Notes: generated by a model from the sequence alone, not told the origin. A stretch of DNA of 64,000 nucleotides from Candidatus Kuenenia stuttgartensis (GCA_945872305.1 CAMCAC010000001.1:2970-66969); one strand, 5' to 3'. Counted from the first letter of the stretch, positions 3,257 to 30,779 are shown. Numbers and translations: made by a program.

Positions 3257-3275
3257 CGCTTCACGCCATCTTCAC
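3257..3275 (+). promoter_or_regulatory. PHO-box-like site: two 8-mers CGCTTCAC / ATCTTCAC with 11-bp period, 36 bp upstream of the GH3 operon start
   Basis: Same phased TTCAC motif as found upstream of pstS, phnC, phnF, btaA, the phytase-like gene and the phnM paralog in this window. Confidence 0.4.
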
Positions 3276-3310
3276 TTTCCCCCGCCCTGCCCGGTTCGCA
3301 TGGTGCGGGC

Positions 3311-4816
3311 ATGGTGCGTGGACTGCTCGGCTATGGCGTCGCCCGGCTCCTGGCCCTGGATGACCGACGCCCGGTGACGCCGGCTGGGATCAGGGCGGCC
3401 CAGGACCGGGAGCTGGCACGGATCCTGGCCCGGCTGGGGCCGACCGCGGTGGGCCGGCGTTTCGGGCTGGGAGACCTCCGGGATGCGGCAGCGTTCCGGG
3501 ACCGGGTCGCGCCGACGGGGTATGGCGATTACGCTGGAGAACTGGCCCGCAGCGCCCAGGGCGAGCCGGATGTGCTGTTCCCTGGCCGGCCCCGGGCCCT
3601 GGCCCAGACCAGCGGCACGACGAGTTCCGGCGCCGCCGGCGAGCGCTTCATCCCCCAGGGAGCCGACCTCCTCGACCACCACGCCCGGGGCGGCCGGGCG
3701 GCTTTGGCGCGGCTCGCGGCGGCGGTGGGGCCGCGGTTGTTCGCCGGGCGGATGCTCATGCTCGGCGGCTCCACCAGCCTGACGGCGAATGCCCACGGGG
3801 TGCCGGTGGGGGATCTGTCGGGCATCGTGGTCGACCGCATCCCGTCCTGGCTCCAGGGCTTCTACGAGCCGGGCCGGGCCATCGCCCTGGAATCGGACTG
3901 GGAGCGCAAACTCGCGCGCATCGTCGAACGGCTCGCGCACCGGGATGTGCGGCTCGTCAGCGGCATCCCGAGCTGGATGCTGGTCCTGTTCGACCGCCTG
4001 TGCCGGGCCCGGGGGGTGGAGCGCCTGCGCGACGCCTGGCCGGACCTGGCGGGGTTGATCCACGGTGGCCACGCGGTGGCGCCGACCCTGCCGATGCTGC
4101 GGCACCACCTGGATCCCGCGACCCGCCTGGTCGAGGTCTATCCGGCGAGCGAGGGCTTCCTCGCGGTGGGCAGCCGGGCCTGGACCCCGGACGAGGACGG
4201 TCCGCCGCCCCTGGCCTGCCTGTGTGCGCATGGGATCTGGCTCGACTTCCTGCCCGAGGACGGCGGCCCCGCGGTGGGCGCCGACGGGCTCGAGGACGGT
4301 CGGCTGTACCGGATCCTGGTCACGACTCCCGGCGGACTGCTGCGCTACCAGATCGGTGATCTCGTGCGCGGCTGCGGGCCGGGGCTGCTCCGGGTCGCGG
4401 GCCGGGTGCGCTGCCGCATCTCGGTCTTCGGCGAGCATGTGGAAGGGGACCACCTGGACGCGGCCATCACCGCCGCCGGCCTCCGGGTCGCCCACTACCA
4501 CGTGGCTCCGGTGCTGCCCACGCCGGCGGAGCCCCGGGGCCGCCACGAGTGGTGGATCGAGAGCCCCGACCCCATCGATCCCGTCGCGGTGGCCGCGGCC
4601 ATCGACCGTCATCTCCGCGCGACGGTCCTCGACTACGACGCCCACCGGGCCGGCGACCAGCAGTTGCTGGCGCCGACGGTGGTGCCGGTGCCGCCGGGGA
4701 CCTTCGCCGCCGCCCTCGCCGCCCAGGGCAAGCTCGGTGGCCAGCACAAGGTGCCCCAGGCCTGGGCCGACCGCACCGTCGCCGACCGTCTCGCCGCCGC
4801 GGCCACCCTCCCATGA
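3311..4816 (+). CDS. GH3-family (auxin-responsive GH3-like) acyl-acid amido synthetase / adenylating enzyme
   Basis: Product MVRGLLGYGVARLLAL...AQTSGTTSSGAAGERFIP... carries the GH3 P-loop-like SGTTSG motif and GH3-like downstream segments (YRYQIGDLVR). Start set at the internal ATG 3311, after the Pho box. Confidence 0.7.
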   Translation: MVRGLLGYGVARLLALDDRRPVTPAGIRAAQDRELARILARLGPTAVGRRFGLGDLRDAAAFRDRVAPTGYGDYAGELARSAQGEPDVLFPGRPRALAQTSGTTSSGAAGERFIPQGADLLDHHARGGRAALARLAAAVGPRLFAGRMLMLGGSTSLTANAHGVPVGDLSGIVVDRIPSWLQGFYEPGRAIALESDWERKLARIVERLAHRDVRLVSGIPSWMLVLFDRLCRARGVERLRDAWPDLAGLIHGGHAVAPTLPMLRHHLDPATRLVEVYPASEGFLAVGSRAWTPDEDGPPPLACLCAHGIWLDFLPEDGGPAVGADGLEDGRLYRILVTTPGGLLRYQIGDLVRGCGPGLLRVAGRVRCRISVFGEHVEGDHLDAAITAAGLRVAHYHVAPVLPTPAEPRGRHEWWIESPDPIDPVAVAAAIDRHLRATVLDYDAHRAGDQQLLAPTVVPVPPGTFAAALAAQGKLGGQHKVPQAWADRTVADRLAAAATLP

Positions 4817-5796
4817 TCGATCTCCTCTTCTCCGCCCCGTCCGTCACCGAGGGCACAGCCGACCCCGTGGCGGCGCCGCCCTCCCCCCGGCCTCTGCTCA
4901 CCATCGACCGCGCCAAGGGGCGCGGCCCGCTCCGATTCCTGTGCGTGCCCGGCCTGGTTCCGGACGGCCCCGAGACGTTCCTCCGCCAGCGCAAACTGCT
5001 CGCCAAGTTCGGACCGGCGGATGTGGTGACCTATCCGCCGGACCGCTTCGATCTGGACCGCGCCCTGGCGGAGATGGAGGCGTATCTGCGCGAGGACCCC
5101 AAGGTCCGCACCGTCCTGGTCGGGGTCAGCGTCGGTGGCGGCCTGTGCCTGGAGCTGCTCCGCCGGGCCCGGGAGGCCAAGCGACCGCTGCCCCTGCACG
5201 GGGTGGTGCTGATCAGCCCGCTCACCTGCACCGCGGACCTGTCGCCGATCCTCAGCAAGCTGCTGGCTCCCATCCTGACCGAGATGGACAAGGCCGAGGC
5301 GGGTCGGCCCGAGGTGGCGCTGGAGCGCGGCCGGTCTTTCTTCAAGGGGCTTGCCAGCCGCTCCGCGGGCACCGCCCGGGCGCAGCAGGGCTGGCGCAAG
5401 GTGGCGAGCCTGTTCACACCCGCGGGCCTGGCGGAGCTGGTCGATGGCCGCATCCGCAAGCGCATCGAGGCGACCCTGGACCGCATCACCCCCGCCGGCG
5501 CGGTGCAGCGGGTCGAGGCGTTGCGCCGGCTGCCCGGACTGGGTGTCTCGCGCACGCCCTACGTGGAGGTTCCGACCCTGCTCCTGTGGGGCGCCAAGGA
5601 GCGTCACACCCTGGACATGGACGGCCCGGGCACCCGTATCCTCTGCCGGCCCGACCTGGCGGTGAAGGTGTTCCCCAAGGCCGAGGTCCACTGGATCTAC
5701 GACAAGGACGGCGAGGAGGTCCCGCACGCCTCGCTGCTCCGCCACGCCAAGGCGTTCAACCGCCCGCTCAAACGCTTCCTCAAGCGGATCGCATGA
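4813..5796 (+). CDS. Alpha/beta-fold hydrolase
   Basis: Start overlaps the GH3 stop (ATGA). The product MIDLLFSAPS...VLVGVSVGGGLCLELL has a GXSXG-type nucleophile elbow and the length and secondary-structure rhythm of alpha/beta hydrolases. Confidence 0.65.
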   Translation: MIDLLFSAPSVTEGTADPVAAPPSPRPLLTIDRAKGRGPLRFLCVPGLVPDGPETFLRQRKLLAKFGPADVVTYPPDRFDLDRALAEMEAYLREDPKVRTVLVGVSVGGGLCLELLRRAREAKRPLPLHGVVLISPLTCTADLSPILSKLLAPILTEMDKAEAGRPEVALERGRSFFKGLASRSAGTARAQQGWRKVASLFTPAGLAELVDGRIRKRIEATLDRITPAGAVQRVEALRRLPGLGVSRTPYVEVPTLLLWGAKERHTLDMDGPGTRILCRPDLAVKVFPKAEVHWIYDKDGEEVPHASLLRHAKAFNRPLKRFLKRIA

Positions 5797-6308
5797 TCCC
5801 GCGGTGCATCGCGGAGCAGGAGCGCTACCGCCACCGCCGCGCCGTGGTGGTCGAGGAACGCTGGGTCACCGTGGATGGCGAGGTGCTGCGCCCGGTGGTG
5901 CGCTTCCCGACCACCGTCGGCATCATCGCCTGTCCCGTTCCCGGCCGCATCCTGATGGTCCGCCAATGGCGCTATCCGGTGCGCCGCTTCACCGTCGAGA
6001 TCCCCGCCGGCACGGTGGAGCCGGGCGAGGATCCCCTGGCGGCGGCGGTGCGCGAGCTGCGCGAGGAAACCGGCTGGGGCGCGACGGCGGTGCACGAAGT
6101 CCTGCGCTACACCCCGGAGCACGGCACCAGCGACGAGACGGTGATCCTGGTCGAGGCCACCGGCTTGCACCTGGCCCCGCTGCCGCCGGATCCCGGCGAG
6201 CAGTGCGAGGTGCTGGACCTGCCGGTGGCGGAGGCCCGGGCCCAGGCCATCGCCGGCGGACCCGACGCCCGCACCCTGCTCGCCCTGGCCCGGCTCGGCG
6301 CCGGCTGA
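5793..6308 (+). CDS. NUDIX hydrolase
   Basis: Start overlaps the hydrolase stop (ATGA). Clear Nudix box GTVEPGEDPLAAAVRELREETGW (GX5EX7REUXEEXGU). Confidence 0.8.
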   Translation: MIPRCIAEQERYRHRRAVVVEERWVTVDGEVLRPVVRFPTTVGIIACPVPGRILMVRQWRYPVRRFTVEIPAGTVEPGEDPLAAAVRELREETGWGATAVHEVLRYTPEHGTSDETVILVEATGLHLAPLPPDPGEQCEVLDLPVAEARAQAIAGGPDARTLLALARLGAG

Positions 6309-6318: not shown

Positions 6319-6337
6319 GTCTTCATCGGGCCTTCAC
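6319..6337 (+). promoter_or_regulatory. PHO-box-like site (GTCTTCAT cgg GCCTTCAC) 21 bp upstream of the phnM paralog
   Basis: 11-bp phased TTCAY 8-mers; same motif family as the other Pho-type promoters here. Confidence 0.4.
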
Positions 6338-6357: not shown

Positions 6358-7504
6358 CATGCTCCACGCCCCACCCACCACCAAGCCCCTCCGCATCACC
6401 GGCGCCCGCGCCCTGGTCGACGGCGGTTGGAGCGAGGAGCCGGTGGCGATCGAGGACGGCTGCATCACCGCAGATCGCGGTGGCTTCGCCGAGTGGGATG
6501 CCCGGGGCCTGCTCCTGCTGCCGGGCATCGTGGACATCCACGGCGATGCCTTCGAACGGGCGGTGCAGCCCCGGCCCCGGGTGGAGTTCCCGTTCGATCT
6601 TGCCCTTGGGGAATGCGATGGCTGGCTGCTCGCGGCGGGGGTGACCACCTACCTCATGTCGGTCACCGATTCGGTGGAGCCGGGGTTGCGCTCCCGCTCC
6701 ACCCTGCGCCGGCTGATGAGCGCCCTCGATGGCGCGGGCCGCCACCGTCTGCAGGCGGACTGGCACATCCACATCCGCCACGAGATGACCCTGGTCGACG
6801 GCCACGACGAACTCCTCGCGTGGATCCACGAGGGCCGCCCGGCGATGCTCTCGATCGCCGACCATCTCCCCCTGGATGCGGACGATGCCGAGGCGGGGCG
6901 TTACCACCGATCCGCGCTGCATCGCACCGGGATCGCCCCGGCGGAACTCGATGACCTGATCCGCACCGGCGTGGCGGACCGGGAGCATGGACGGGCCCAG
7001 GCGATGGAGCTGGCCGCCGCGGCCCGGGCCGCCGGCATTCCCCTGGCCAGCCACGACGACGACAGTCCCGCCCAGGCCGCCGCCAGCGCCGCCCGGGGCT
7101 GCACGGTGGCGGAGTTCCCCCTGGATGCGGCCACCGCCCGGTCCGCGCGCCGCCACGGCATGGGCGTGCTGGTCGGCGCCCCCAACCTGGTCCGCGGCCG
7201 ATCCCATATCGGCGCCCTGGGAGCCGCCGACGCGGTGCGCATGGGCCTCGCCGACGCCCTGTGTTCCGACTACCATTTCGCCAGCCTCTTCGCGGCACCG
7301 TCGGTCCTTGCCGAGCAGGAGATCCTCCCCCTCGAACAGGCCTGGGAGCTGGTCAGCGCAGGTCCCGCCCGCCTCGCCGGCTTGCGGGACCGCGGTGCCA
7401 TCCGGACGGGATTGCGCGCCGACCTGCTCCTCGTCGAACCCGGCCCCCAGCTCCGGCTGCGCGCCGTGATCGTCGCCGGCCGGGTGGTGGCATCGTTCGC
7501 GTGA
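6358..7504 (+). CDS. phnM: PhnM-family amidohydrolase (alpha-D-ribose-1-methylphosphonate 5-triphosphate diphosphatase paralog), outside the C-P lyase operon
   Basis: Product MLHAPPTTKPLRITGARALVDGGW...LPGIVDIHGDAFER...ASHDDDSPAQ...EFP...GAPNLVRGRSHIG... shares all hallmark PhnM blocks with the second copy at 9077-10222. Confidence 0.8.
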
Positions 7505-7713: not shown

Positions 7714-8367
7714 CTACGGTGCGTAGCGCTCCGCGAACTCGGCCATGGGCAGGGCGAGGTCCGCGGCCCGGGCGACCAGGACGGCGCGATCCCAGTCCCA
7801 CCAGCGGGTGGCGAGCATGCGCTCCGCCAGGGGCGGATCCGCCCGCCACTTGATGAAGCGGGCCGGCACGCCGCCGACGATGGCGTAGGGCGGTACGTCC
7901 TTGGTCACCACCGCGCCGGCGGCGAGCACCGCGCCGGTGCCGACGGTGACGCCGGGCAGGACGATGACCCCGTGGCCGATCCACACATCGTGGCCGATCA
8001 CCACCCGGTCGGCGCCGCGGTCGGCGAAGAACGTCGCGTCATCCTCCCCGGCGAAGCCGTACTGGGCCCGGCGGTAGGTGGCGTGGTGCTGGGTCGCCCG
8101 CTCCATCGGATGGTTGCCGGGACCGATCCGGGTCGCGGCGGCGATGGAGCAGAAGCGGCCGACCACGGTGTTCGCCAGGTCCGCGCCGTGGGCGGCGTAA
8201 CTGTAGTCGCCCAGGTCGCAGTCCGCCATCCGGCAGCCGTCCATCAACTCAGTCCACGTCCCGAGCCGGCTGCGCACCACGCGGACACCGGTGCGCAGGC
8301 AGGGCAGCTCCGACAGGGCATCATCGCGCCAACGCCCGGTGCCGGCGACGGTGTCGATCAACTCCAT
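7714..8367 (-). CDS. Phosphonate-metabolism-associated transferase, hexapeptide-repeat (LbH) family
   Basis: 217-aa product MELIDTVAGTGRW... has left-handed beta-helix hexapeptide repeats (VIGHDVWIGHGVIVLPGVTVGTGAVLAAGAVV). It is the last gene of the phn operon, overlapping the phnP start by 10 nt. A hexapeptide transferase is a recurrent accessory gene of C-P lyase operons. Confidence 0.7.
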   Translation of the reverse strand: MELIDTVAGTGRWRDDALSELPCLRTGVRVVRSRLGTWTELMDGCRMADCDLGDYSYAAHGADLANTVVGRFCSIAAATRIGPGNHPMERATQHHATYRRAQYGFAGEDDATFFADRGADRVVIGHDVWIGHGVIVLPGVTVGTGAVLAAGAVVTKDVPPYAIVGGVPARFIKWRADPPLAERMLATRWWDWDRAVLVARAADLALPMAEFAERYAP

Positions 8368-9086
8368 GCGATCCGCTCCCCGTCGTGGCCCACCGCGCAC
8401 CACGGGGGCAGCACGGTCCCCTCGTCGAGATGGCATTGCAGGTGGTGGCCGATGTGGACCAGCCGCCCGGCGGTGCAGCGGATCGCCGTCAGGGCCGCCA
8501 CCGCCCGGGGCAGGTCGTTGTGGCGTTTCTCCTCGGCCCGGGGGTCGTCGGGCGGGAACGAGCAGTCGATGGCCCCGAGATCCGGGCGCAGGGCGGCGAG
8601 GAACGCGGTGGTCCGCTCCGGCAGGCCGAGGGTGTCGGTGAGCCAGGCGATCCGCCGGGGGCCCTCCACCAGCCAACCGACCGCGGGGATGGTGTGGTGC
8701 AGGGGCACCGGCGTGGCGGTCCAGCCGTTCGCCAGGGCTATGGACACGAAGGGTTCCACCACCCGGATGCGCAGGCCGGGCACCCGGTCCTCGACCGCGA
8801 TCCGGCGGTCCGGATCCTCGGGCCCCCACACCGGCCGGCCGGCGGCGACGGCGGCGATCTCCGCCACATGGTCCGGGTGGTAGTGGGTCAGGAGCAGCGC
8901 GTCGGGCCGGTCGGGGCCCACCAGCCCCGCGTCCACCTGGACACTGAACCGGTGGTCCGCGATCCACGCGCAGGTGTGGCGGCGGGACGGCCCGGTGCCG
9001 GTCCGGGCCCGGTCGCAGGCGCCGCAGATGCAGCCGGCGGCGGGGATGCCGCTGGTGGTGCCGGTGCCGAGCAGGGTCAGACGCAT
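8358..9086 (-). CDS. phnP: PhnP, phosphonate metabolism phosphodiesterase (metallo-beta-lactamase fold)
   Basis: Product MRLTLLGTGTTSGIPAAGCICGACDRAR...LLLTHYHPDHV... has the PhnP N-terminal Cys cluster and the HxHxDH motif. Overlaps the phnM start by 10 nt. Confidence 0.8.
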   Translation of the reverse strand: MRLTLLGTGTTSGIPAAGCICGACDRARTGTGPSRRHTCAWIADHRFSVQVDAGLVGPDRPDALLLTHYHPDHVAEIAAVAAGRPVWGPEDPDRRIAVEDRVPGLRIRVVEPFVSIALANGWTATPVPLHHTIPAVGWLVEGPRRIAWLTDTLGLPERTTAFLAALRPDLGAIDCSFPPDDPRAEEKRHNDLPRAVAALTAIRCTAGRLVHIGHHLQCHLDEGTVLPPWCAVGHDGERIAWS

Positions 9087-10222
9087 GCGGGCCGGTCCAC
9101 GGTGTCGAGGACCTTGCGCCCAGCGACCAGCACCGCCTGGACCGTGGGCCGTTGGGCATCCACGAGCAACAGATCCGCCCGTTGGCCGAGGGCGATCGCG
9201 CCACGGTCGCGCAGCCCCGCCGCCCGGGCCGGCATCAAGCTCACCAGCCGCACCGCATCCGGCAGACTGAGGGGGGACACCTCCGGGAGCATGAGCGCCG
9301 CCGCCAGGAGCGAGGGCGGATGGTAGTCCGCGCACAGCCCGGTGCAGGCGCCGGCGAGGATCACATCCAGGGCCCGGACATTGCCACCGCTGCTCCGGCC
9401 GCGCACCACGTTCGGTGCCCCGAACAGGGTGACCATGCCCGCGTCCACCGCCGCCTGGGCGGCGGCGAGACCGATCGGGAACTCGCTGATCGTCACCCCC
9501 AGCCGCTGCATGGCGGCGACCTTTTCCGGGGTGTCGTCGTCGTGGCTGGCCAGGGCCACGCCGTGCTCCCGGGCCAGGGCGGCGAGGCGGTCCATGCGCG
9601 CGGCGCCCTCGTCCCGGGCGGCGACCTTGGATTCGCCGATGCGGATCGATTCCGCTTCGCTGGTGTGGTAGGTGCGGGTCATGTACGCGACATAGGCGCC
9701 CATGTCCGCGAACTGGCCCTGACCCGGGCTGTGGTCCATGAACGACACGAGTTCGGTCTGGCCGTCGGCGATCAGCTCCGCCACCGGGGCTTCGCCGCCG
9801 GCGTCGGTGATCTCGTAGCGGGCGTGGACCCGGTGCTCGACCAGGCCGGAGAACCCGCGCACCGTGCGCACCACCTCGGCGGCGACCCGGCAGTCCCGCA
9901 CGCCCCATTCGCCGCCGGCGAAGGAGATCGCGTGGTACACGGTGGTGATGCCGGCGTGCAGGTTGCGGCGGTCGGAATTCGCCAGGGCGAAGCCGTGGTC
10001 GAAGGCGACCCGGGGCCGCGGCTCAACCTCTTTTTCAAGGGCGTCGCAATGCAGATCGACCAGCCCGGGCAGGCAGCGGGCGCCGCCACCGTCGAGCTCC
10101 TGGTCGATGTCCGGGGCCACCGGGCAGATGGAGCGGATGATGCCGTCCTCGATCAGCAGGGAGCCATCATGGACAACCGCATCCGGCAGGACGAGGTCCA
10201 CATGGGAGATCAGGCGGCGCAT
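9077..10222 (-). CDS. phnM: PhnM, RPnTP diphosphatase (amidohydrolase superfamily)
   Basis: Product MRRLISHVDLVLPDAVVHDGSLLIEDG...LPGLVDLHCDALEKE...ASHDDDTPEKV...SEFP...GAPNVVRGRSSGGN sits in operon position between phnL and phnP. Confidence 0.85.
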   Translation of the reverse strand: MRRLISHVDLVLPDAVVHDGSLLIEDGIIRSICPVAPDIDQELDGGGARCLPGLVDLHCDALEKEVEPRPRVAFDHGFALANSDRRNLHAGITTVYHAISFAGGEWGVRDCRVAAEVVRTVRGFSGLVEHRVHARYEITDAGGEAPVAELIADGQTELVSFMDHSPGQGQFADMGAYVAYMTRTYHTSEAESIRIGESKVAARDEGAARMDRLAALAREHGVALASHDDDTPEKVAAMQRLGVTISEFPIGLAAAQAAVDAGMVTLFGAPNVVRGRSSGGNVRALDVILAGACTGLCADYHPPSLLAAALMLPEVSPLSLPDAVRLVSLMPARAAGLRDRGAIALGQRADLLLVDAQRPTVQAVLVAGRKVLDTVDRPACV

Positions 10223-10914
10223 GGGGCCTCCGGGCGGCGCAGGGTGACGACCTCGTCCGCCAGGGCGGCGACCAGGTCCGGATCATGGAAGATGGCGAGG
10301 ATGCCCACGCCGTCGGCCTTGGCGGCGCGGATCGCCGCCACCACCAGCTCGGCGCTGCGCCGGTCCAGGCTCGCGGTGGGTTCGTCGAGCATGAGCAGCC
10401 GCGGCCGGTGGACGAGTCCGCGGGCGAGGTTCACCCGCTGCCGCTCGCCGCCGCTGAAGGTCGCCGGTGGGATCCCCCACAGCCGCTCCGGCAGGTCCAG
10501 TTCCCGCAGACGTTCCTCCGCCGCCGCCCGGGCCGCGGCGCGGCCGGCGCCGATAGCGACCAGGGGCTCCGCCACCACATCCACCGCCGGCTGGCGCGGC
10601 AGGCAGTGCAGGAACTGGGTCACATAGGCGATGTCCCGGGCCCGGATCCGCAGGGCGGTGGGCTCGTCGCAGGCCGCCAGATCCATCGCCCCGTCCGCGG
10701 CGGCGAAGCGGATCGTCCCACGCTGCGGCAGATAGGTCCGGTACACGCACTTGAGCACCGAACTCTTGCCGGCCCCGCTCGGTCCGACCAGGGCGGTCAA
10801 CCGCCCCGCCCGCACCGTGAACGACGCCCCAGCCACGCTCGGGATCATGGTCCCGGTGTGGTGGAGGGTGAAGGATTTGTGCAGGTCGGTGACGGTGAGG
10901 ATGGGATCGTTCAT
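10210..10914 (-). CDS. phnL: PhnL, C-P lyase ATP-binding component
   Basis: Product MNDPILTVTDLHKSF...GPSGAGKSSVLK...FSGGERQRVNLARG...LDEPTASLD is an ABC-type ATPase. It overlaps the phnK start by 4 nt and the phnM start. Confidence 0.85.
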   Translation of the reverse strand: MNDPILTVTDLHKSFTLHHTGTMIPSVAGASFTVRAGRLTALVGPSGAGKSSVLKCVYRTYLPQRGTIRFAAADGAMDLAACDEPTALRIRARDIAYVTQFLHCLPRQPAVDVVAEPLVAIGAGRAAARAAAEERLRELDLPERLWGIPPATFSGGERQRVNLARGLVHRPRLLMLDEPTASLDRRSAELVVAAIRAAKADGVGILAIFHDPDLVAALADEVVTLRRPEAPCAA

Positions 10915-22853: not shown

Positions 22854-22859
22854 GCTTGC

Positions 22860-24635
22860 TCAGCGCGCGTCCGCGGCGACGAAGCGGAAACCAAGGTAGG
22901 GCAGGTGGGCCCGGCCCATCAGGCCGAAGCGCCGGGCTGCCCGGGCGTCGGCGCGCTCGGTGCTCCAGGCGCCGCCCCGGGCGACCCGCTGTGCGCCGCT
23001 CGAGATGCGCCGGTCGACCACCGGCCGGGACGGATACGGGGCGAAGGCATCCACCGTCCACTCCATCACATTCCCGTGCAGGTCATGCAGGCCCCAGGCA
23101 TTGGCCGGCAGGATCGCCACCGGTCGGGTGCGCTCGGCGTTCGCCGCATCCCACATCCGCTCGACCGCGAAAGGACCCTCGGTCCCGGCCCGGCAGGCGA
23201 TCTCCCATTCCACTTCGGTGGGGAGCCGTGCACCCAGGCCCGGCACCAGGGCCTCAAGGCGCTGGCAGAAGGCCATCGCATCGTCCCAGGTCACATTCTC
23301 GACCGGCAGGTCGTCACCGGGGAACTGGCTCGGGTTGCTGCCGGTGACGGTGCGGTAGAGGGCCTGGTCGACTTCGCGGTCGAGCATCCACACCGGGGCG
23401 GACAGGGCGGCCTCAAACGGCGTTTCGTTGGCTTGCCGTCCTGGCTCGTCGGCCGGGGATCCGATGCGCATCGGAGCGGCGGCGATGCGGCGAAGGCGCA
23501 CGGTGCGATCCACCATCCGCAGATCCGCCCAGGGTCCGTGGGCGTCCTCACCGGCGGCGGTTGCCCAGGCTGGACCCGCCGGTCGGGCCGAAGGCACGGA
23601 GGCCGCGGCCGCAGGGGGTGGCGCCGGAGTGGATGGAGGCGGCGTCACCGGGTCGGCGCCACCGGAACCCAGGGCGAAGACGGTTGCGACGGTCCCGACG
23701 ACCACCAGGCCGCCGGCGATCAGGGGCCAGCGCGGTCCGCGTCGGACCACCGGCACGACGGTCGAGGCCGCTCCCACCACGGACTGGCGGCGCTGGTGCT
23801 CGATGGTCGTCATGCCCGGGGCCCTGGCTCCGCCGCCGGCGGGCCGGGCGTGCAGGGGGGAGAACCCGTGGGCCAGCCGCTCAAGATCCTCGCGCAGCTG
23901 CGCCGCGCCCGGGTAGCGGTCGTCCGCGTGCCGCGCCAGGGCCCGCCGCAGCACCGCCGCCATGCCGGGCGCGAGACCGGCGACCAGGGATTCCGGGAGC
24001 GGTGACCGGGCCCAGGCGTCGAGGTCCGCCCGCGACCGGACCGTCACCGGCCAGGCCCCGGTCACCAGGCGCAGGAGGATCACCCCGACCCCGTGAAGAT
24101 CACTGCGGGTATCGCCGGTCTCGCCGAGGATCTGCTCCGGGGCGCGCGTGGTGGCGGCCGAGGGATCGCCGCCGTCGGCGAACACGCCCAGGTCCGCGAG
24201 CACCGCCTGCTGCCCATCGCACCACACGGCCGTCGGTCCGATTCCTCGGTGGGCGATGCCGGCCGCATGCAGCACCTCCAGGGCCCGGCACAGGTCCAGG
24301 CACCAGCCGAGCCCGTCCGCCGTCGCCGGCGCCGATGCCGACAGCAGCCGGTCCAGGCGTTCCCCGTCCGGGCGGCCCTGCACCGTCCAGCAGGCATCTT
24401 CGTGTACGCCGGAGCCGAGGAGCGGCACGAGGTTGGGAGATGGGGAAAGGGCCGCCGCCGCCGTCAAGGCGGAGGACATGGCATCCACGGCCGGAATGCG
24501 TGGCCGCAGGGTGACGAGCACCGGGCGGCCGCCCAGGCGGGCGCCGTAGCGGATCGCCTCGCCGTCGCGGCCCAGCTCGCTCCAGTCGGCAAGGCCGGGA
24601 AGATCGATGGCGGCGAGGACGGGACCGGGACGCAT
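22860..24635 (-). CDS. Degenerate (pseudo)kinase domain, a TM helix, and a C-terminal FGE-sulfatase/SUMF1-like domain
   Basis: N-terminal kinase-like fold lacking canonical motifs (HRGIGPTAV instead of HRDxKPxN; ADLG instead of DFG). TM segment PLIAGGLVVVGTVATVFAL. C-terminal NAWGLHDLHGNVMEWTVD…RGGAWS matches the formylglycine-generating-enzyme family. Confidence 0.7.
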   Translation of the reverse strand: MRPGPVLAAIDLPGLADWSELGRDGEAIRYGARLGGRPVLVTLRPRIPAVDAMSSALTAAAALSPSPNLVPLLGSGVHEDACWTVQGRPDGERLDRLLSASAPATADGLGWCLDLCRALEVLHAAGIAHRGIGPTAVWCDGQQAVLADLGVFADGGDPSAATTRAPEQILGETGDTRSDLHGVGVILLRLVTGAWPVTVRSRADLDAWARSPLPESLVAGLAPGMAAVLRRALARHADDRYPGAAQLREDLERLAHGFSPLHARPAGGGARAPGMTTIEHQRRQSVVGAASTVVPVVRRGPRWPLIAGGLVVVGTVATVFALGSGGADPVTPPPSTPAPPPAAAASVPSARPAGPAWATAAGEDAHGPWADLRMVDRTVRLRRIAAAPMRIGSPADEPGRQANETPFEAALSAPVWMLDREVDQALYRTVTGSNPSQFPGDDLPVENVTWDDAMAFCQRLEALVPGLGARLPTEVEWEIACRAGTEGPFAVERMWDAANAERTRPVAILPANAWGLHDLHGNVMEWTVDAFAPYPSRPVVDRRISSGAQRVARGGAWSTERADARAARRFGLMGRAHLPYLGFRFVAADAR

Positions 24636-24679
24636 GGATGCGAGCCTCCCGCTGCCGGTGAGGATCGCGGCAAGGAAAG

Positions 24680-24698
24680 ATGAAGGTGTCGTGAACCG
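24680..24698 (-). promoter_or_regulatory. PHO-box-like site oriented toward the pseudokinase-FGE gene (minus strand: CGGTTCAC gac ACCTTCAT)
   Basis: 11-bp phased 8-mers, 45 bp from the minus-strand start. Confidence 0.35.
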
Positions 24699-24707
24699 GA
24701 GGCAGGG

Positions 24708-24737
24708 GATTTCACCACATCTTCACCGAGCCTTCAT
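24708..24737 (+). promoter_or_regulatory. PHO box upstream of the pstS-like gene: three 8-mers GATTTCAC cac ATCTTCAC cga GCCTTCAT
   Basis: Three consecutive TTCAY 8-mers at exact 11-bp spacing, 33 bp upstream of the pstS ATG. This is the best copy of the motif in the window. Confidence 0.5.
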
Positions 24738-24770
24738 GGACGCGACGACAAGGCCAGACCGGAGCCACCC

Positions 24771-26036
24771 ATGCCACGCCTCGCGCCCCTGCTCATCCTC
24801 ATCGCCACCGGCCTGTCGGCCGCGGACCGTGCCTCGATCAGCATCGACGGATCGAGCACCGTGTACCCGATCAGCCTGGCCGTGGGCGAGGCCTATGCCG
24901 CCCGCACCGGCACCGCCCTCGACATCCAGGTCACCGGATCGAGCGCCGGGCTGCGCGCCTTCATCGGCGGCAAGCTGGCCATCGCCGCCGCATCCCGGCC
25001 GATCCGCCCGGACGAGGTGGATGCCCTGCGTCGGGCCGGCATCGGGTTCCTGGAGGTGCCCATCGCCCTCGATGGCCTGACCGTGGCAGTGGGCCGTCGC
25101 AACACCTTTGTCGACCACTTGACCGTGGCCGAACTGCGCGCCCTGTGGGAGCCGGGCAGCACCGTGGCCACCTGGAACCAGGTGCGCGGCGCATTCCCGG
25201 CGGCACCGGTGGCCCTGGTCGGTCCCGGGCGCAACTCCGGCACCTTCGACTTCTTCACCGAGGTGGTCAACGGCAAGGCCCGGGCTGTGCGCGAGGTGTG
25301 GACCGGCAGCGAGGACGACAACGAGATCGTGGCGGTGCTCACCGGGGATGCCAACGCCCTCGGCTACTTCGGCTGGTCCTACTACCAGCAGAACCAGGCC
25401 CAGCTCCGCGCCATCCCGATCGACGCCGGGCACGGCCCGGTGGCCCCGTCGCGGGCTGCTATCGAGGATGGCAGTTATGTCCCCTTCTCCCGTCCCCTGT
25501 TCTATTACATCGCCGCCACCGCCATGGAGCGGCCCGAGGTGCGCGGCTTCGTCGATCTGGCCCTGGACTCCCGGCAACTCGTCGAGGAGGCGGGGTATGT
25601 CCCGCTGAGCGAGCCGGTCCTCGCGGTGGTCCGGCGCCGGGTGACCGAGCGCACCACCGGCAGCCTCTTCGCGACCATCGAAGGACACCCGCGCATCGCC
25701 GAGGTGTACCTGGGTTCCACCGCGGCCGCGGTTCCCGCCCCAGCCCCGACTCCGGTCGCAGTGGCAGTCCCGGTTACGGCTCCGACCGCTGCCCCGGCCC
25801 CGGCCCCGGTGGTGGCCCCTGTGGTCGCCCCGGTCGCGGTGGCCCCGGCCCCGGTCGCGGTGGTCCCGGCCCCGGTCCCGGTGGCGACCGCCCCTGCGAT
25901 CCCGGCGGCGGAACTGGAGCGGCTGCGTCGCCAAGCCTTCGCCCTCGCCCGGGCAACGCTTGCGGAGCAGCCGGACCCCGCGGAACTGCGCCAGCGCATC
26001 CGCGACCTCGCCGCCGTGGCGGGAGCGGCGCCGTGA
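24771..26036 (+). CDS. pstS: PstS-family periplasmic phosphate-binding protein with a ~110-aa Ala/Pro/Val-rich C-terminal extension
   Basis: Signal peptide MPRLAPLLILIATGLSAA, then PstS hallmark SISIDGSSTVYPISLAVGEAYA...VTGSSAGL...GWSYY. The tail is AVPAPAPTPVAVAVPVTAPTAAPAPAPVVAPVVAPVAVAPAPVAVVPAPVPVATAPAIP followed by a charged helix. Confidence 0.8.
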   Translation: MPRLAPLLILIATGLSAADRASISIDGSSTVYPISLAVGEAYAARTGTALDIQVTGSSAGLRAFIGGKLAIAAASRPIRPDEVDALRRAGIGFLEVPIALDGLTVAVGRRNTFVDHLTVAELRALWEPGSTVATWNQVRGAFPAAPVALVGPGRNSGTFDFFTEVVNGKARAVREVWTGSEDDNEIVAVLTGDANALGYFGWSYYQQNQAQLRAIPIDAGHGPVAPSRAAIEDGSYVPFSRPLFYYIAATAMERPEVRGFVDLALDSRQLVEEAGYVPLSEPVLAVVRRRVTERTTGSLFATIEGHPRIAEVYLGSTAAAVPAPAPTPVAVAVPVTAPTAAPAPAPVVAPVVAPVAVAPAPVAVVPAPVPVATAPAIPAAELERLRRQAFALARATLAEQPDPAELRQRIRDLAAVAGAAP

Positions 26037-26773
26037 ACCGGCAGCGGTCCGTTCTCGTCCTCGCCGCCGTCCTGGCCGCCGGGTGCCAGTCCGCCCGGCC
26101 GCACCCGCCGGCGCCGGTGCCGACGGTGGTCTCCGCCCCGGCCCTGCCGGCGGCCTGGAGCGGAATCTGGCGTTCCGACTCCGGCGCCGGCCTGGCGGTG
26201 GGCGGGGATCTCCTGCTCTGGACCGACGATGTCGGCGCCGTGGCCGAGTGGCGGCCGCGGGCGGTCCGCGCCATCGGTCCGGCCCTCGTCCTGGATCTCG
26301 CCGAGGGCACCACGGCCTTGACCCCGGGCCGGTCGGTGCGCGAGCGCCGCTTCGCCGCCCAGGCGGTGTGGACGGACGCCGACCATCTGGATCTGCATCG
26401 CCCCGGGCGTCCGTCGGTGCGGCTGTGGCGCGAGGGAGGCTCCACCTGGCTTCCGGTCCAAGCACCGGTGACGGTGGCCGGGCCGGTGGCGGCGGACCCG
26501 GATGCACGCCTGCGGGAGCGGGCCAGGGATCTCGCCGACCCGGGCTGGACCGCTGCGGCGGAGTCCCTGGTCGGCGCCGCCCGGGCCGGCGCCCGGAACG
26601 AGGAACTCGCGGCGCGGATCGATGCCATCACCCGCCGGGAGCGCCTTGCCGCCCTCGACCGGCTCGAAGCATCGATCATGGATACCTCCCTGCGACCAGG
26701 AGCCGACCGGCTTGCCGCCGATGCGGAATCCTGGCTCGTCCACGCCACCGCATGGCTGGAGTCACGGCCCTGA
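26033..26773 (+). CDS. Lipoprotein of unknown function (GTG start overlapping the pstS stop)
   Basis: (M)NRQRSVLVLAAVLAAGC lipobox, in the same operon as pstS. No recognisable domain. Confidence 0.45.
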   Translation: MNRQRSVLVLAAVLAAGCQSARPHPPAPVPTVVSAPALPAAWSGIWRSDSGAGLAVGGDLLLWTDDVGAVAEWRPRAVRAIGPALVLDLAEGTTALTPGRSVRERRFAAQAVWTDADHLDLHRPGRPSVRLWREGGSTWLPVQAPVTVAGPVAADPDARLRERARDLADPGWTAAAESLVGAARAGARNEELAARIDAITRRERLAALDRLEASIMDTSLRPGADRLAADAESWLVHATAWLESRP

Positions 26774-26774
26774 C

Positions 26775-27641
26775 ATGGCCCAGCCCAGCGATGGAGACAC
26801 CAGCCGGATCCGTCGGCTGACCCGGACCCAGACCGCGGGTACCGGCGCCCCGCTCCAGGGCGAGTTGGAGGAATATCCCTTGGCGGATGTGCTCCAGTTC
26901 CTGGCCCGGAGCCGCCGGAGCGGTCATCTGGCCCTGGAGCGCGGGGAGCCTGCCCAGACCGCCGCGGTGATCGTCCATGAGGGGGTCGTGGTGTCGGCGC
27001 GGTGTCCGCCCGCCTCCGGTGACCAGGTGGTGATCTCCCTGCTGGGCTGGCGTCATGGCCGGTTTCTCTTCCTGGCCGGTCAGGTGCCTTCGGTCGGTGA
27101 CGTGACCCAGGGACTGCCCGCCTTGCTCCTGGAGGCGGCCCGCTGGGAGGACGAGATCGGCCGAGCCCTCGCCGGGCTGCCCGGACCGGACACGGTGCTG
27201 CACCGGGTCCACGATTCCCGGCTCGTGACCACCCGGGTCAGCCGCCTGGCCTGGAACCTGCTCGGTCACGTGGATGGCGAGCACACGGTGATGGAACTGG
27301 TGCAGGGTTTCCGGACCGCCCAACCGGAGGTCGCCATCGCCCTGCGCGATCTGTGGCAGTCGGGGTTGGTGCGGGACCACGCCGACACGGGATTCCTCCG
27401 TCGCATCGCGGTGCGCCGGATGGTGCCGGCATCCGGCATCGATTCCGCCGAGGATCGTGTCCTGGCTGCGGCGGATGGCCACCGCAGCCTTGCCGATGTG
27501 CTCCTCCTGACCGGCCTGCCGGGCGAGGAGATGATCGCCACCGCGGTCCATCTCATCGAGGCATCGCGTCTGGAGATCGTGGCCGGCCACGACGCCTATC
27601 GCGACCATCTGGATCCGGGGCTTCCGGAACGGCGGTGGTGA
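26775..27641 (+). CDS. DUF4388-domain protein (PATAN-like N-terminal module)
   Basis: The N-terminus …LQGELEEYPLADVLQFLARSRRSGHLALERG… matches the DUF4388 signature (G.L..f.l.dllQ.l…k.tG.L). The ATG is 1 nt after the lipoprotein stop. Confidence 0.5.
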   Translation: MAQPSDGDTSRIRRLTRTQTAGTGAPLQGELEEYPLADVLQFLARSRRSGHLALERGEPAQTAAVIVHEGVVVSARCPPASGDQVVISLLGWRHGRFLFLAGQVPSVGDVTQGLPALLLEAARWEDEIGRALAGLPGPDTVLHRVHDSRLVTTRVSRLAWNLLGHVDGEHTVMELVQGFRTAQPEVAIALRDLWQSGLVRDHADTGFLRRIAVRRMVPASGIDSAEDRVLAAADGHRSLADVLLLTGLPGEEMIATAVHLIEASRLEIVAGHDAYRDHLDPGLPERRW

Positions 27642-27661: not shown

Positions 27662-27691
27662 GTCTTCATGATGACTTCACACGGCGTTCAC
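27662..27691 (+). promoter_or_regulatory. PHO box: GTCTTCAT gat GACTTCAC acg GCGTTCAC, immediately upstream of the phytase-like lipoprotein gene
   Basis: Three 8-mers in perfect 11-bp phase. It ends only 11-23 bp before the candidate start codons, implying a leaderless mRNA or a downstream start. Confidence 0.45.
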
Positions 27692-27701: not shown

Positions 27702-29417
27702 ATGAACCGTCCCATGCCCCATATCCCCACCACCCGCACCCTGCTCTCCACCACCCTGCTTGCCGCGGCCCTGCTCGCCGGCGGCTGCGCATCCGACGGC
27801 GATGATGGCGCCGCGGGTCCCACCGGACCCACTGGCCCAGGTGGTCAGGACGGCGACGGCTCCATCCACCTCCGTTCCGTCGGCACCTATGCCGGCGGCG
27901 GTTCATCCAACGAAATCGTCGCCTACGATCCCATCAGCAAGCGGATGTTCGTGGTCAACGCCACGGACGGGTTGCTGGAGATCGTCAGCCTGGCCAGCGC
28001 CACCGCCCCGGTGAAGGTCGGCCAGGTCGACATCACCGCCGCGCCGATCAACGGCGGCGGCATCAATTCCGTGGCGGTCCACGGCGGGCTGGTGGCGATC
28101 GCCATCGAGGCCCCGGACAAGACCGCCTCGGGCACGGTCGCCTTCCTCTCCGCCAGCGGCACCGGTGCGATCCTCGCCCAGGCGGTGGTCGGCGCCCTGC
28201 CGGACATGCTGACCTTCACCCCGGATGGCACCAAGGTCCTGGTCGCCAACGAGGGTGAGCCCGAGGATTATGCGGTCATCGATCCCGAGGGTTCCGTGTC
28301 GATCATCGCCATGCCCGCCACGGTCACCGCCGGCACCAGCTTCGCCAGCCGGGTGACCCAGGTCGGCTTCGCCGGGTTCAACGCCAGCGCCGCCGCCCTG
28401 CGCACCGCCGGGGTGCGCATCTACGGTGGCCTGGATGCCAATGATGACGGTGACACCACCGATCCGGGCGACACCCCGAGCACCGTGGCCCAGGACCTGG
28501 AGCCCGAGTACATCGCCGTCAGCGCCGATTCAGGGACCGCGTTCGTGACCCTGCAGGAGAACAACGCCATCGCCGAGATCGACATCGCCACCGGGACGGT
28601 GGTCGCGATCCGGCCGCTCGGGTACAAGAGCCATGACCTGATCGGCAACGAGATCGATCCCAGCGACCGGGATGTGAACGGCACCTCCGGCGGCGGCGGC
28701 GTGGCCCGGCTGCGCACGGTGCCGGTGTGGGGCATGTATCAGCCGGATGCCATCGCCGCATTCACGGTCGCCGGCAGCACCTACCTGGTGACCGGCAACG
28801 AGGGTGACGCCCGGGCGGACTGGGCCGGCTTCTCCGAGGAGTCCCGTCTCGGCGGCGCCACCTTGGATGCGGCCAATCCCGTCTCGCTGCGGGGCCTGAC
28901 CGGCAATGCCGATCTCGGCCGTCTGAACATCACCACCGCCAGCGGCGACACCGACGGCGACGGCGACCTCGACCGCTGCTACGCCTATGGTGCGCGCTCG
29001 TTCTCGATCTGGTCTGAGAGCGGATCCCTGGTCTTCGATTCGGGCAACGACTTTGAGCGCATCACGGCCAACCGCCTGGGCACCGGCTACAACAATGACG
29101 GCGGCGGCTTCGATTCCCGCAGCGACAACAAGGGCCCCGAGCCCGAGGGTGTCACCACCGGCACCATCGAGGGCCGCACCTACGCCTTCATCGGCCTGGA
29201 GCGCACCGGCGGCGTGATGGTGTACGATGTCACCGTCCCCGATGCGGCGGAGTTCGTGCAGTATGTCCGCACCTCGGGCGACGTGTCGCCCGAGGGCCTC
29301 GCCTTCATCCCGGCGGCCAGCAGCCCGAACGGCAAGGCCCTGCTCCTGGTCGCGCACGAGATCAGCGGCACCACCGTGATCTACGAGATCGATCCGACCC
29401 CGACCGGCAGCAACTGA
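27702..29417 (+). CDS. Secreted lipoprotein, beta-propeller of the 'choice-of-anchor I' / phytase-like esterase family (probable phosphoesterase)
   Basis: Lipobox LLAGGC, then a collagen-like GPTGPTGPGG linker. Repeated blades contain NEGEPEDYA…, GPEPEGVTTGT…GLERTGGVMVYDV, and SPEGLAFIP, as seen in phytase-like / choice-of-anchor-I proteins. Family call from memory; moderate confidence. Confidence 0.55.
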   Translation: MNRPMPHIPTTRTLLSTTLLAAALLAGGCASDGDDGAAGPTGPTGPGGQDGDGSIHLRSVGTYAGGGSSNEIVAYDPISKRMFVVNATDGLLEIVSLASATAPVKVGQVDITAAPINGGGINSVAVHGGLVAIAIEAPDKTASGTVAFLSASGTGAILAQAVVGALPDMLTFTPDGTKVLVANEGEPEDYAVIDPEGSVSIIAMPATVTAGTSFASRVTQVGFAGFNASAAALRTAGVRIYGGLDANDDGDTTDPGDTPSTVAQDLEPEYIAVSADSGTAFVTLQENNAIAEIDIATGTVVAIRPLGYKSHDLIGNEIDPSDRDVNGTSGGGGVARLRTVPVWGMYQPDAIAAFTVAGSTYLVTGNEGDARADWAGFSEESRLGGATLDAANPVSLRGLTGNADLGRLNITTASGDTDGDGDLDRCYAYGARSFSIWSESGSLVFDSGNDFERITANRLGTGYNNDGGGFDSRSDNKGPEPEGVTTGTIEGRTYAFIGLERTGGVMVYDVTVPDAAEFVQYVRTSGDVSPEGLAFIPAASSPNGKALLLVAHEISGTTVIYEIDPTPTGSN

Positions 29418-29461
29418 CGAACCGCCACCGTGACCCGCTGCCACCAGGGCGGCGGGTCCGG

Positions 29462-30676
29462 TCAGGCCGTGAGCAGCCCAGGTGGCGGGATCTCCGCCGC
29501 CTGGGCTGCGTCGTTGTCGCGGCCGGCCCTGGTCCGTGGACCGGCCGCCAGCGGGAGCACCACGCGGAAACAGGAGCCTTGCCCGGGGACGCTGTCCACC
29601 TCCATCCGCCCGCCCATGGCATCGACCAGGCGGCGGGAGATCGCCAAGCCCAGGCCACTGCCCTCATGGCGGCGTGAGGATGTTGCATCGACCTGGACGA
29701 ACGGTGTGAACAGCCGGGCGAGGTCTTGCGCGGCGATGCCGCAGCCGGTGTCCGTGACCTCCAGAGTGAGCAATCGGTCGGGCATCAGTGCGGCATGCAA
29801 CCGGATCCCGCCCTGGTCGGTGAACTTGCAGGCGTTGCCCAGGATGTTCACCAGCACCTGGGTCAGCCGGCGGGGATCGCCCATGATCACGGGGGGCAGA
29901 TCCGGTTCGATCGTCAGGTCGAGGGCAAGCCGCTTGTCCCGGGCCAGCGGCGAGATCATTCCTACCGCATCGGTGAGCAGGGGGCGCAGGTCGATGGGGT
30001 GCCGCTCCATCCGCATGGATCCCGATTCGAGGGTCGAGATGTCGAGCACCGCATTGACCAGGGACAGCAGGTGCGAACCGGCCCGGTGGATCTGGGCGGC
30101 GCTGTCGTGAACCTCGTGCAGATCATCGGTGCCGGCGAGCAGTTCCGAGAAGCCGAGGATGGCGGTGAGCGGCGTACGCAGCTCATGGTGCATGGTGGCG
30201 ATGAACTGGCTGCGTGCACGCACGCCGGCCAGGGCGAGGTCCCGGGCAGCGATGAGATCCCGTTCCCGGCGGGCGGCCTGGGCGAGGAATGCTTCGACCA
30301 GCAGGGGGTAGGTCAGGACGAGCGGTTCGCCGGGATCGTCGTTCACCAGCCCCCCTGCCTGCGCCGCATCACGGTCCCGCCACATCGGCAGCACCTCCGC
30401 GAGGGGCGTTGCTGCCGGGATCCGTACCGCCGGGGCGAGCCGCATCGCATCGATCCACTGGCCCAGGGGCCGGTCCTGGAGCAGGGCGAAGCCGTAGCGT
30501 CCGGCGAAGGCCGACAGCAACTGGTGGCGGAAGAGCAGGTGGGTGCAGTGTCCGTTGCGGGCGACGGGGACCGCCTCGGGTCCGCCACCGCCCAGGAACC
30601 GTTCACGGAGGACGCCGCAGGGGAGGCGGTCATCCACCGCTCGGCATCGACGGGCGGCGTCACCGGCGCTGTCCAT
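29462..30676 (-). CDS. Sensor histidine kinase (HisKA + HATPase_c) with an N-terminal sensory region; no cognate response regulator adjacent
   Basis: H-box ATMHHELRTPLTAILGFSELL, N-box LVNILGNACKFT, G-boxes DTGCGIA / GSGLGLAI. Start set at internal ATG 30676, because the GTG at 30757 lies inside the btaA PHO box. Confidence 0.7.
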   Translation of the reverse strand: MDSAGDAARRCRAVDDRLPCGVLRERFLGGGGPEAVPVARNGHCTHLLFRHQLLSAFAGRYGFALLQDRPLGQWIDAMRLAPAVRIPAATPLAEVLPMWRDRDAAQAGGLVNDDPGEPLVLTYPLLVEAFLAQAARRERDLIAARDLALAGVRARSQFIATMHHELRTPLTAILGFSELLAGTDDLHEVHDSAAQIHRAGSHLLSLVNAVLDISTLESGSMRMERHPIDLRPLLTDAVGMISPLARDKRLALDLTIEPDLPPVIMGDPRRLTQVLVNILGNACKFTDQGGIRLHAALMPDRLLTLEVTDTGCGIAAQDLARLFTPFVQVDATSSRRHEGSGLGLAISRRLVDAMGGRMEVDSVPGQGSCFRVVLPLAAGPRTRAGRDNDAAQAAEIPPPGLLTA

Positions 30677-30749
30677 GCCGAGGAGGATGCACGGGACTGT
30701 GAAGACATGATGAATTTGGCAGGGGCCCTGGACAACCCGGGCCAATCGG

Positions 30750-30779
30750 GCGTTCACGCCGTCTTCCCGATGTCTTCAC
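30750..30779 (+). promoter_or_regulatory. PHO box upstream of btaA: GCGTTCAC gcc GTCTTCCC gat GTCTTCAC
   Basis: Three 8-mers at 11-bp spacing, 25 bp upstream of the first ATG of btaA. Confidence 0.45.

Follow-up and report, generated by a model that had tools for sequence, protein, structure and literature searches.

A phosphorus-related gene island in a planctomycete contig

We analysed a 64,000-nt stretch of DNA deposited under Candidatus Kuenenia stuttgartensis (GCA_945872305.1, CAMCAC010000001.1:2970-66969; hereafter the window), in which a short direct repeat built of CTTCAY units precedes the genes of a phosphorus-related island. A first-pass annotation of the window had described this repeat as a PHO-box-like motif. 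The sequence examined comprised the 64-kb window and about 110 kb from relatives; genes were mapped with a codon-usage model and annotated with Pfam and NCBIfam. The window has a G+C content of 72.5%. The island extends from 3.2 to 32.8 kb, and housekeeping genes (cmk, leuS, frr, pyrH and others) occupy 33-64 kb. The nearest relatives of its LeuRS (59-81% identity) are all Planctomycetota metagenome-assembled genomes (MAGs), other phyla reaching about 52%, and we assign the host to an uncultured Planctomycetota lineage. The main genes of the island are as follows.

3311-4816, + strand: GH3 gene, OlsH-like (Pfam, NCBIfam)
4813-5796, + strand: alpha/beta-hydrolase gene, OlsI-like (Pfam)
5793-6308, + strand: NUDIX gene (Pfam)
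6359-7504, + strand: second PhnM paralogue, of the ribose 1-methylphosphonate 5-triphosphate diphosphatase subfamily (NCBIfam NF011987, 409 bits, cut-off 253)
7714-15595, - strand: carbon-phosphorus (C-P) lyase operon phnF-G-H-I-J-K-L-M with a phnP-like MBL gene and a phn-associated hexapeptide transferase gene (Pfam/NCBIfam)
17083-17535, - strand: GNAT gene
17672-20553, + strand: phnCDE
20637-22853, + strand: receptor Ser/Thr kinase with a WD40 propeller, GTG start
22860-24635, - strand: kinase-FGE-sulfatase gene
24771-26036, + strand: PstS-family gene (TIGR02136 passed)
to 27641, + strand: 246-aa lipoprotein, then a PatA_N/DUF4388 protein, both 3' of the PstS-family gene
27702-29417, + strand: choice-of-anchor-I lipoprotein (Pfam PF22494, NCBIfam NF038117)
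29462-30676, - strand: orphan cytoplasmic histidine kinase (HisKA and HATPase_c), start revised to the ATG at 30676
30804-32775, + strand: btaA/btaB-like genes

The Pho-type gene content claimed in the first-pass annotation was recovered by Pfam and NCBIfam, with PhnF, PhnGHIJKLM, PhnCDE, a PstS-family protein and BtaA/BtaB-like proteins. The C-P lyase cluster contains the phnGHIJKLM core, the phnF regulator and the phnCDE transporter; PhnF (equivalog), PhnM (subfamily) and the hexapeptide transferase score above their NCBIfam cut-offs. On the other hand, the protein described as a phytase-like lipoprotein belongs to the choice-of-anchor-I family and has no phytase match, and searching its sequence against the PDB gave no informative match. 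The GH3, NUDIX and phnM genes, taken earlier for one operon, do carry the motif; they form two units, one box standing before GH3-abhydrolase-NUDIX and another before the second phnM.

Phased CTTCAY repeats upstream of the island genes

The pattern TTCAY-N6-TTCAY occurs 11 times on both strands of the window, for 0.02 expected from 100 dinucleotide shuffles (maximum, one copy). All 11 copies are intergenic, between positions 3260 and 30714, in a window where intergenic DNA makes up 6% of the sequence. When all intergenic same-strand TTCAY pairs at most 40 nt apart are listed, the spacings are 11 nt (11 pairs), 22 nt (four pairs) and 33 nt (one pair), with no other value. In addition, TCTTCA and CTTCAT rank among the most intergenic-enriched 6-mers in a count made blind to the motif. 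A profile of 26 units reads (G/A)-T-C-T-T-C-A-(C/T), with about 11 bits per unit. Each site contains two to four such units, arranged head to tail with an 11-bp period, as are the direct repeats of a Pho box, in which about 7-8 positions are conserved and 3-4 vary. The sites, lettered A to K, are listed below.

Site A, 3257-3275, + strand: two units, CGCTTCAC gcc ATCTTCAC; upstream of the OlsH-like GH3/OlsI-like/NUDIX operon
Site B, 6319-6337, + strand: two units, GTCTTCAT cgg GCCTTCAC; second phnM, ATG 6359 lying 21 nt past the box
Site C, 15631-15671, - strand: four phased units, GGCTTCAC, ATCTTCAT, degenerate CCACTGGC and GAATTCAC; phnF, ATG 35 nt past unit 4
Site D, 17558-17576, - strand: two units, ATCTTCAT cca CGATTCAC; GNAT gene, GATGCT 10 nt and ATG 22 nt past the box
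Site E, 17631-17649, + strand: two units, ATCTTCAT cca GTCGTCAC, detected with a TCAY pattern; phnCDE, CACTGT 10 nt and ATG 22 nt past the box
Site F, 20560-20578, + strand: two units, GCATTCAC ggg ATCTTCAT; WD40 Ser/Thr kinase
Site G, 24680-24698, - strand: two units, CGGTTCAC gac ACCTTCAT; kinase-FGE-sulfatase gene, GGGAGG in the leader
Site H, 24708-24737, + strand: three units, GATTTCAC, ATCTTCAC and GCCTTCAT; PstS-family gene
Site I, 27662-27691, + strand: three units, GTCTTCAT, GACTTCAC and GCGTTCAC; choice-of-anchor-I lipoprotein, ATG 27702 lying 21 nt past unit 2, unit 3 overlapping the -10 position
Site J, 30699-30717, - strand: two units, AAATTCAT cat GTCTTCAC; histidine kinase, CATCCT 9 nt and in-frame ATG 30676 22 nt past the box
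Site K, 30750-30779, + strand: three units, GCGTTCAC, GTCTTCCC and GTCTTCAC; btaA/btaB, ATG 30804 lying 24 nt past the box

The ten sites picked out by eye in the first-pass annotation are all real, each made up of (G/A)N(C)TTCA(C/T) 8-mers, two to four in number and exactly 3 nt apart; those given as 15631, 17557 and 24680 lie on the minus strand and face the minus-strand phnF, GNAT and kinase-FGE genes. The list lacked an eleventh site, site J, which faces the histidine kinase gene. All boxes are oriented toward the gene they precede. In three intergenic regions, each about 130 nt long (GNAT/phnC, kinase-FGE/pstS-like and histidine kinase/btaA), two boxes stand back to back and serve divergent genes.

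Boxes are confined to the island. The strict dimer stands at 10 of the 15 transcription-unit heads between 3.2 and 32.8 kb and at none of the 15 outside (Fisher p = 2e-4). Counting btaA, whose middle unit is TTCCC, 11 of the 15 island promoters carry a box, so that within the window boxes precede phosphate-acquisition or phosphate-sparing genes (11/15) and not genes elsewhere (0/15).

Promoter geometry and predicted leaderless starts

The geometry downstream of the boxes was tested on 20 pooled sites, 11 from the window and nine from relatives. A NANNNT hexamer starts 8-11 nt past the proximal unit in 12 of the 20 (background 8.4%, p = 8e-9); the hexamers include GATGCT, CATCCT, CACTGT, GATCCT, CATGCT and GAGAAT. 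The E. coli Pho box, with its 8-bp repeats and 3-bp linkers, likewise lies 10 bp upstream of the -10 element (PMC1906773). Judged from sequence, the box points to its gene and takes the position of a -35 element, some 10 bp before the -10. The units, phased at 11 bp, run head to tail toward the gene and lie just upstream of a -10-like hexamer, which agrees with the OmpR/PhoB-type geometry that the first-pass annotation had proposed from the 11-bp period.

An ATG is found 20-24 nt past the box in 14 of the 20 sites (background 6.3%, p = 4e-13), which gives strong statistical support to the earlier suggestion of leaderless transcripts. Six window ATGs keep this spacing and are in frame with the genes downstream: 6359, 17535, 17672, 27702 (counted from unit 2), 30676 and 30804. 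A -10 hexamer (TANNNT-like) about 12 nt before the ATG, with no Shine-Dalgarno sequence, is the signature of leaderless genes (PMC3160421). Of 29 operon heads, 10 have NANNNT at -13 to -11 relative to the start codon; of 25 internal genes, one does. The hexamer also precedes the box-less housekeeping genes at 33052 and 57887, so leaderless initiation appears to be general in this organism and not a property of the box. A core Shine-Dalgarno sequence is found in only 19 of 54 genes, so that the lack of one says little here. Start codons stand further from the box at the pstS-like (33 nt) and kinase-FGE (44 nt) promoters, both of which have a Shine-Dalgarno sequence. Altogether, the positions of hexamers and start codons argue strongly that the transcripts from these promoters are mostly leaderless.

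Three observations concern individual starts. At the OlsH-like gene, the ATG at 3300 is 24 nt past site A and out of frame, and the real start at 3311 is 35 nt past it. An 11-bp tandem duplication at 3298-3319 (GCATGGTGCGG / GCATGGTGCGT) creates these two ATGs, each followed by GTGCG; the first copy opens a 25-codon open reading frame (ORF) at 3300 and places a CATGGT hexamer at -12 relative to the ATG at 3311. As the duplication is seen in two independent assemblies (L081 and L082), it is not an assembly artefact. At the WD40 kinase gene, an ATG lies exactly 20 nt past the box both in the window (20599) and in the relative L085 (10498). These ATGs open short ORFs (72 and 41 codons) out of frame with the kinase, whose start is 38 nt (window) and about 72 nt (L085) further on; they could be leaderless upstream ORFs or a coincidence. 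Finally, TGCATGCT, an extended -10-like sequence, is found at 33038-33045 and 57893-57900, 6-7 nt before the ATG of two box-less genes, a DUF4139 gene at 33052 and a 363-aa gene ending at 57887.

Conservation in relatives and across phyla

A metagenome scan with PhnD yielded three relatives (L083, L085 and L107), which were scored with the profile built from the window. All three are syntenic with the window, with PhnD 66-72% identical and a G+C content of 66-69%. In each of them the GNAT gene heads the phn operon, and a box precedes the GNAT-phnF operon (3/3); in L107 this operon is itself headed by a metallophosphoesterase gene. L085 has a box before the Ser/Thr kinase gene located 3' of phnE. 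In L107, boxes precede an OlsI-like hydrolase gene (three units, ATG 21 nt past the box), btaA (ATG 21 nt past the box) and an operon of PAP2, metallophosphoesterase and OlsH-like genes (ATG 22 nt past the box).

Three further contigs carry the kinase/PstS module described below. L110 and L111 have boxes at all three module promoters (kinase, FGE gene and pstS-like gene). In L112 the box before the kinase-FGE gene is weaker, and the pstS-like gene is preceded by phased units of which the middle one is degenerate. Overall, boxes are kept at orthologous promoters in L083, L085, L107, L110, L111 and L112.

The gene content of L107 is also larger. It adds (7935-8762, 11785-15394 and 17341-20304) a PAP2 phosphatase, two calcineurin-like metallophosphoesterases, a GT4 glycosyltransferase, encoded beside btaA, and a class-III aminotransferase. 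These extra genes surround the btaAB and OlsH/OlsI-like genes, forming a fuller membrane-lipid remodelling set, and several of them stand behind boxes.

Homologues of the choice-of-anchor-I protein, collected by a scan of genome contigs, are at most 51% identical to it and come mostly from gammaproteobacteria. TGTCAY-N5-TGTCAY (at most one mismatch) lies upstream of 28 of 78 of them, compared with 0.7% of control segments. Because these 28 homologues carry an E. coli-type box, the family seems to be a recurrent member of Pho regulons that uses its host's own box type. In a Thermoanaerobaculia homologue, the upstream region reads TTCAC-N6-TTCAC followed by GATCCT.

Genes less expected in a Pho regulon

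The first-pass annotation had counted the GH3 operon, the GNAT gene and a Ser/Thr kinase gene as unexpected bearers of the motif. They do bear it; the surprise lessens on closer annotation, the three being an aminolipid-like operon, a GNAT that heads the phn operon and the kinases of a PstS-like module.

Phosphorus-free aminolipids are a classic phosphate-sparing response. The GH3 protein matches the OlsH model (NCBIfam NF052613) with E = 1.7e-77 and 261 bits, below the cut-off of 620, and the alpha/beta-hydrolase gene overlaps the GH3 stop by 4 nt, in the same operon. OlsH is a lyso-ornithine-lipid synthetase, and OlsH/OlsI were described in 2025 in Singulisphaera acidiphila (PMC12493201, PMC12971839). 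As in that planctomycete, a GH3-family acyl-acid amido synthetase gene is directly followed by an alpha/beta-hydrolase gene within one operon. Unlike there, no OlsG methyltransferase gene stands between the genes here and a NUDIX gene follows instead; the window GH3 is far below the OlsH equivalog cut-off, so its amino-acid specificity may not be that of OlsH. The pair resembles, at the level of sequence and gene order, an OlsH/OlsI-like pathway for phosphorus-free aminolipids. In Serratia, olsF has a Pho box upstream, and in Sinorhizobium lipid remodelling is under PhoB control (PMC12971839); no phosphate regulation or Pho box is reported for olsHI in PMC12493201 or PMC12971839. From its box, we predict that the OlsHI-like operon is under Pho control.

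The GNAT gene recalls E. coli PhnO in its association with the phn operon, which it heads in the relatives; phnO lies within the E. coli phn operon. The GNAT protein matches the aminoalkylphosphonate acetyltransferase model only weakly.

PstS-like homologues at 57-59% identity mark a conserved gene module. It consists of a WD40 kinase gene and a (kinase-)FGE-sulfatase gene, divergent from genes for a PstS-like protein, a protein of about 250 aa and, where the contig extends, a PatA_N protein. The module spans 20637-27641 in the window and 6260-11764 in L110, and is also found in L111 and L112; in some further contigs it was judged by gene order alone. The two Ser/Thr kinases have one transmembrane segment each. 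The PstS-like protein has a long Ala/Pro-rich linker, with no pstCAB nearby, and the lipoprotein of about 250 aa has no family match. For comparison, pknD-pstS2 of Mycobacterium tuberculosis is a receptor Ser/Thr kinase gene with a beta-propeller sensor next to genes for phosphate-binding proteins. Common to both systems is the single-pass Ser/Thr kinase with an extracytoplasmic beta-propeller, encoded beside a PstS-family gene. The module differs in having two kinases (with WD40 and FGE-sulfatase ectodomains), a lipoprotein and a PatA_N protein, a box at each promoter and no adjoining pstCAB. The conserved kinase/PstS module may be a phosphate-sensing signalling unit.

Comparison with known Pho boxes

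Pho-box cores are GTTCACC in Streptomyces and CTGTCAT in E. coli (PMC4415409), and CTTAACCT in Synechocystis (PMC1906773). Like the E. coli PhoB box, the window sites are tandem head-to-tail repeats of at least two units with an 11-bp period, in the place of the -35 element and 9-10 nt before the -10; they too lie upstream of pstS, phn and phosphorus-scavenging genes, and the TCAY end of the core is common to both (PMC1906773, PMC4415409). In contrast, the window core is (T)CTTCAY instead of CTGTCAY, the linker is G+C-rich instead of A/T-rich, and most of the window promoters appear leaderless. The E. coli-type core TGTCAY is absent, with T in place of G before TCAY in 25 of the 26 units; boxes of that type were found at proteobacterial homologue loci only.

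The operators of Streptomyces coelicolor PhoP, as described in PMC2275107 and PMC4415409, share with the window sites a high-G+C genome, a TTCAC core in direct repeat units of 11 nt, a variable number of units (two to four here) and some degenerate internal units. They differ in the base before TTCAC, which is C in 18 of 26 window units (G in three), and in belonging to Actinomycetota and not Planctomycetota. The Synechocystis SphR box, three tandem 8-bp CTTAACCT repeats with a 3-bp linker, has the same 8+3 architecture, often with three units (PMC1906773). CTTAAC and CTTCAC are one position apart, the two elements differing at the fourth core base and in the bases that follow. In addition, the Synechocystis boxes listed in PMC1906773 lie 73-303 nt upstream of the first codon, compared with 20-24 nt in the window. 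Such core differences between lineages are expected. In every sequence-level feature tested other than the E. coli-type core, the CTTCAY element agrees with a PhoB/PhoP Pho box, and it would work like one.

Other features of the window

A major facilitator superfamily (MFS) transporter gene (15708-16877) is divergent from phnF, with which it has a common 112-nt intergenic region; its product is ArsK-like (190 bits, below the cut-off). The four-unit box of site C is oriented opposite to this gene, and an MFS homologue likewise flanks the phn cluster in L083.

The gap between phnI and phnJ (12599-12824) measures 226 nt, compared with 30-75 nt in L083, L085 and L107. A duplicated 26-nt segment (cctcccgccctcctgtaagcctcgaa) lies on both sides of a long G+C-rich inverted repeat, and the gap looks like a small hairpin element inserted within the operon.

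Between the convergent leuS and acyltransferase/AMP-binding genes, 52379-52617 is dense in CTCTGCG / CGCAGAG(G) repeats in both orientations. No 6-mers of the window are more enriched in intergenic DNA than those derived from these repeats, which probably make up a large bidirectional terminator or repeat element.

A weak box-like dimer, GGGTTCAC gtc GCCGTCAC (55239-55260, - strand, score 13), occurs in the intergenic region between frr and 54847, about 470 nt upstream of an acyltransferase/acyl-activating (Aas-like) lipid gene (52618-54768). It is probably not functional. A search with Rfam found no RNA family in the window.

Discussion

We consider it likely, with a probability of about 0.8, that an OmpR/PhoB-family response regulator, encoded outside the window, uses the CTTCAY units as its Pho box. 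Phosphorylated under phosphate limitation, the regulator would bind head to tail, one molecule per 11-bp unit, with the promoter-proximal unit ending 9-10 bp before a weak -10 hexamer of the form NANNNT (for instance GATGCT, CATCCT or CACTGT). There, like E. coli PhoB, it would substitute for the -35 element and bring in the housekeeping sigma factor, presumably as an activator and not a repressor. At most promoters, transcription would start at, or a few nucleotides from, the A of the ATG to give a leaderless mRNA, and the pstS-like and kinase-FGE promoters would yield short leaders with Shine-Dalgarno sequences. The regulon would have three roles. Phosphorus would be scavenged through phosphonate uptake by the ATP-binding cassette transporter, the C-P lyase with the second PhnM, the PstS-family protein and the choice-of-anchor-I lipoprotein. 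Phosphorus-free lipids, namely the betaine lipid made by BtaAB and an OlsH/OlsI-like aminolipid, would replace phospholipids. The third would be a signalling set of two receptor Ser/Thr kinases, a PatA_N protein and the orphan histidine kinase.

Several observations weigh against this reading. Neither Pfam nor tblastn, with an E. coli PhoB query, revealed a PhoB/OmpR-type regulator gene in the window or in the clade contigs fetched. The window contains no pstSCAB-phoU operon, which would be the most canonical target, and the histidine kinase beside btaA is not a PhoR equivalog (TIGR02966, 168 bits, cut-off 334). Four sites depart from the canonical ATG spacing, with 33 nt (H), 35 nt (A and C) or 44 nt (G), and the start codons of phnC, btaA and the histidine kinase gene are partly uncertain.

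The first of these points would also fit a winged-helix regulator of the OmpR/PhoB family, or a SARP-like one, that answers a signal other than phosphate (general nutrient starvation, phosphonate availability or the island's own kinases), the phosphate gene content then reflecting a specialised sub-regulon and not a global Pho response. In its favour, the island encodes its own sensors (the two receptor Ser/Thr kinases and the box-bearing orphan histidine kinase), and the sequence examined offered no pstSCAB-phoU or phoBR target. We find this unlikely, since the breadth of the targets, from phosphonate use and PstS to phosphorus-free lipids and the phosphoesterases of L107, fits global Pho regulons, and orthologues elsewhere have canonical PhoB boxes. 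A bolder version of the Pho-box reading is that the box-controlled module runs the phosphate response of the clade, with the PstS-like protein a sensor for the kinases and not a transporter subunit, and the whole regulon leaderless at a fixed box-ATG distance of 20-24 nt; taken as a whole, we regard it as doubtful.

Could the CTTCAY unit instead be the -35 element of an alternative sigma factor? An extracytoplasmic function (ECF) sigma factor gene of the Rhodopirellula/Verrucomicrobium type, with a probable anti-sigma gene beside it, lies at the edge of the island (2183-2749). Yet a -35 element does not need two to four tandem units at an exact 11-bp spacing, and the -10-like hexamer is 9-10 nt from the proximal and 20-21 nt from the distal unit, whereas sigma-70-family spacers are 16-18 nt. 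Moreover, the hexamers are of the housekeeping NANNNT type, present at the box-less genes too, and no box precedes the ECF sigma gene itself, which leaves this explanation very improbable. It is at least as hard to accept that the repeats are operators of the local GntR-family repressor PhnF, or a chance or mobile repeat with no regulatory function. The phnF gene does lie in the island, directly downstream of site C; GntR/HutC regulators, however, recognise short inverted repeats and not direct repeats in phase, and the sites also precede non-phosphonate genes (btaA, olsH-like, pstS-like and kinase genes). Chance is excluded by the 11 copies observed for 0.02 expected. Nor would one expect a mobile repeat to occur at promoters only, at a constant distance from start codons, or to persist before orthologous genes in relatives whose orthologues share only 57-85% protein identity. 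On spacing, tandem copies, gene range and conservation, we therefore rejected the ECF -35 element, the PhnF operator and the chance or mobile repeat.

A Pho box of an OmpR/PhoB-family regulator does not overturn current understanding. It would be an ordinary kind of switch, unsurprising to a specialist and useful for annotation. We found no paper that defines a Pho box in Planctomycetes, and (G/A)TCTTCAY, phased at 11 bp, would be a first, testable operator consensus for the phosphate-starvation regulon of this metagenome-only Planctomycetota lineage. Its promoters would be activator-dependent and joined directly to start codons, in a phylum absent among the leaderless-gene groups of a 2011 survey (PMC3160421). 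The work also singles out a conserved kinase/PstS module and predicts that, in planctomycetes, both BtaAB betaine-lipid synthesis and the recently discovered OlsH/OlsI aminolipid pathway are under phosphate control. Finally, the consensus lets Pho regulons be predicted in related MAGs.

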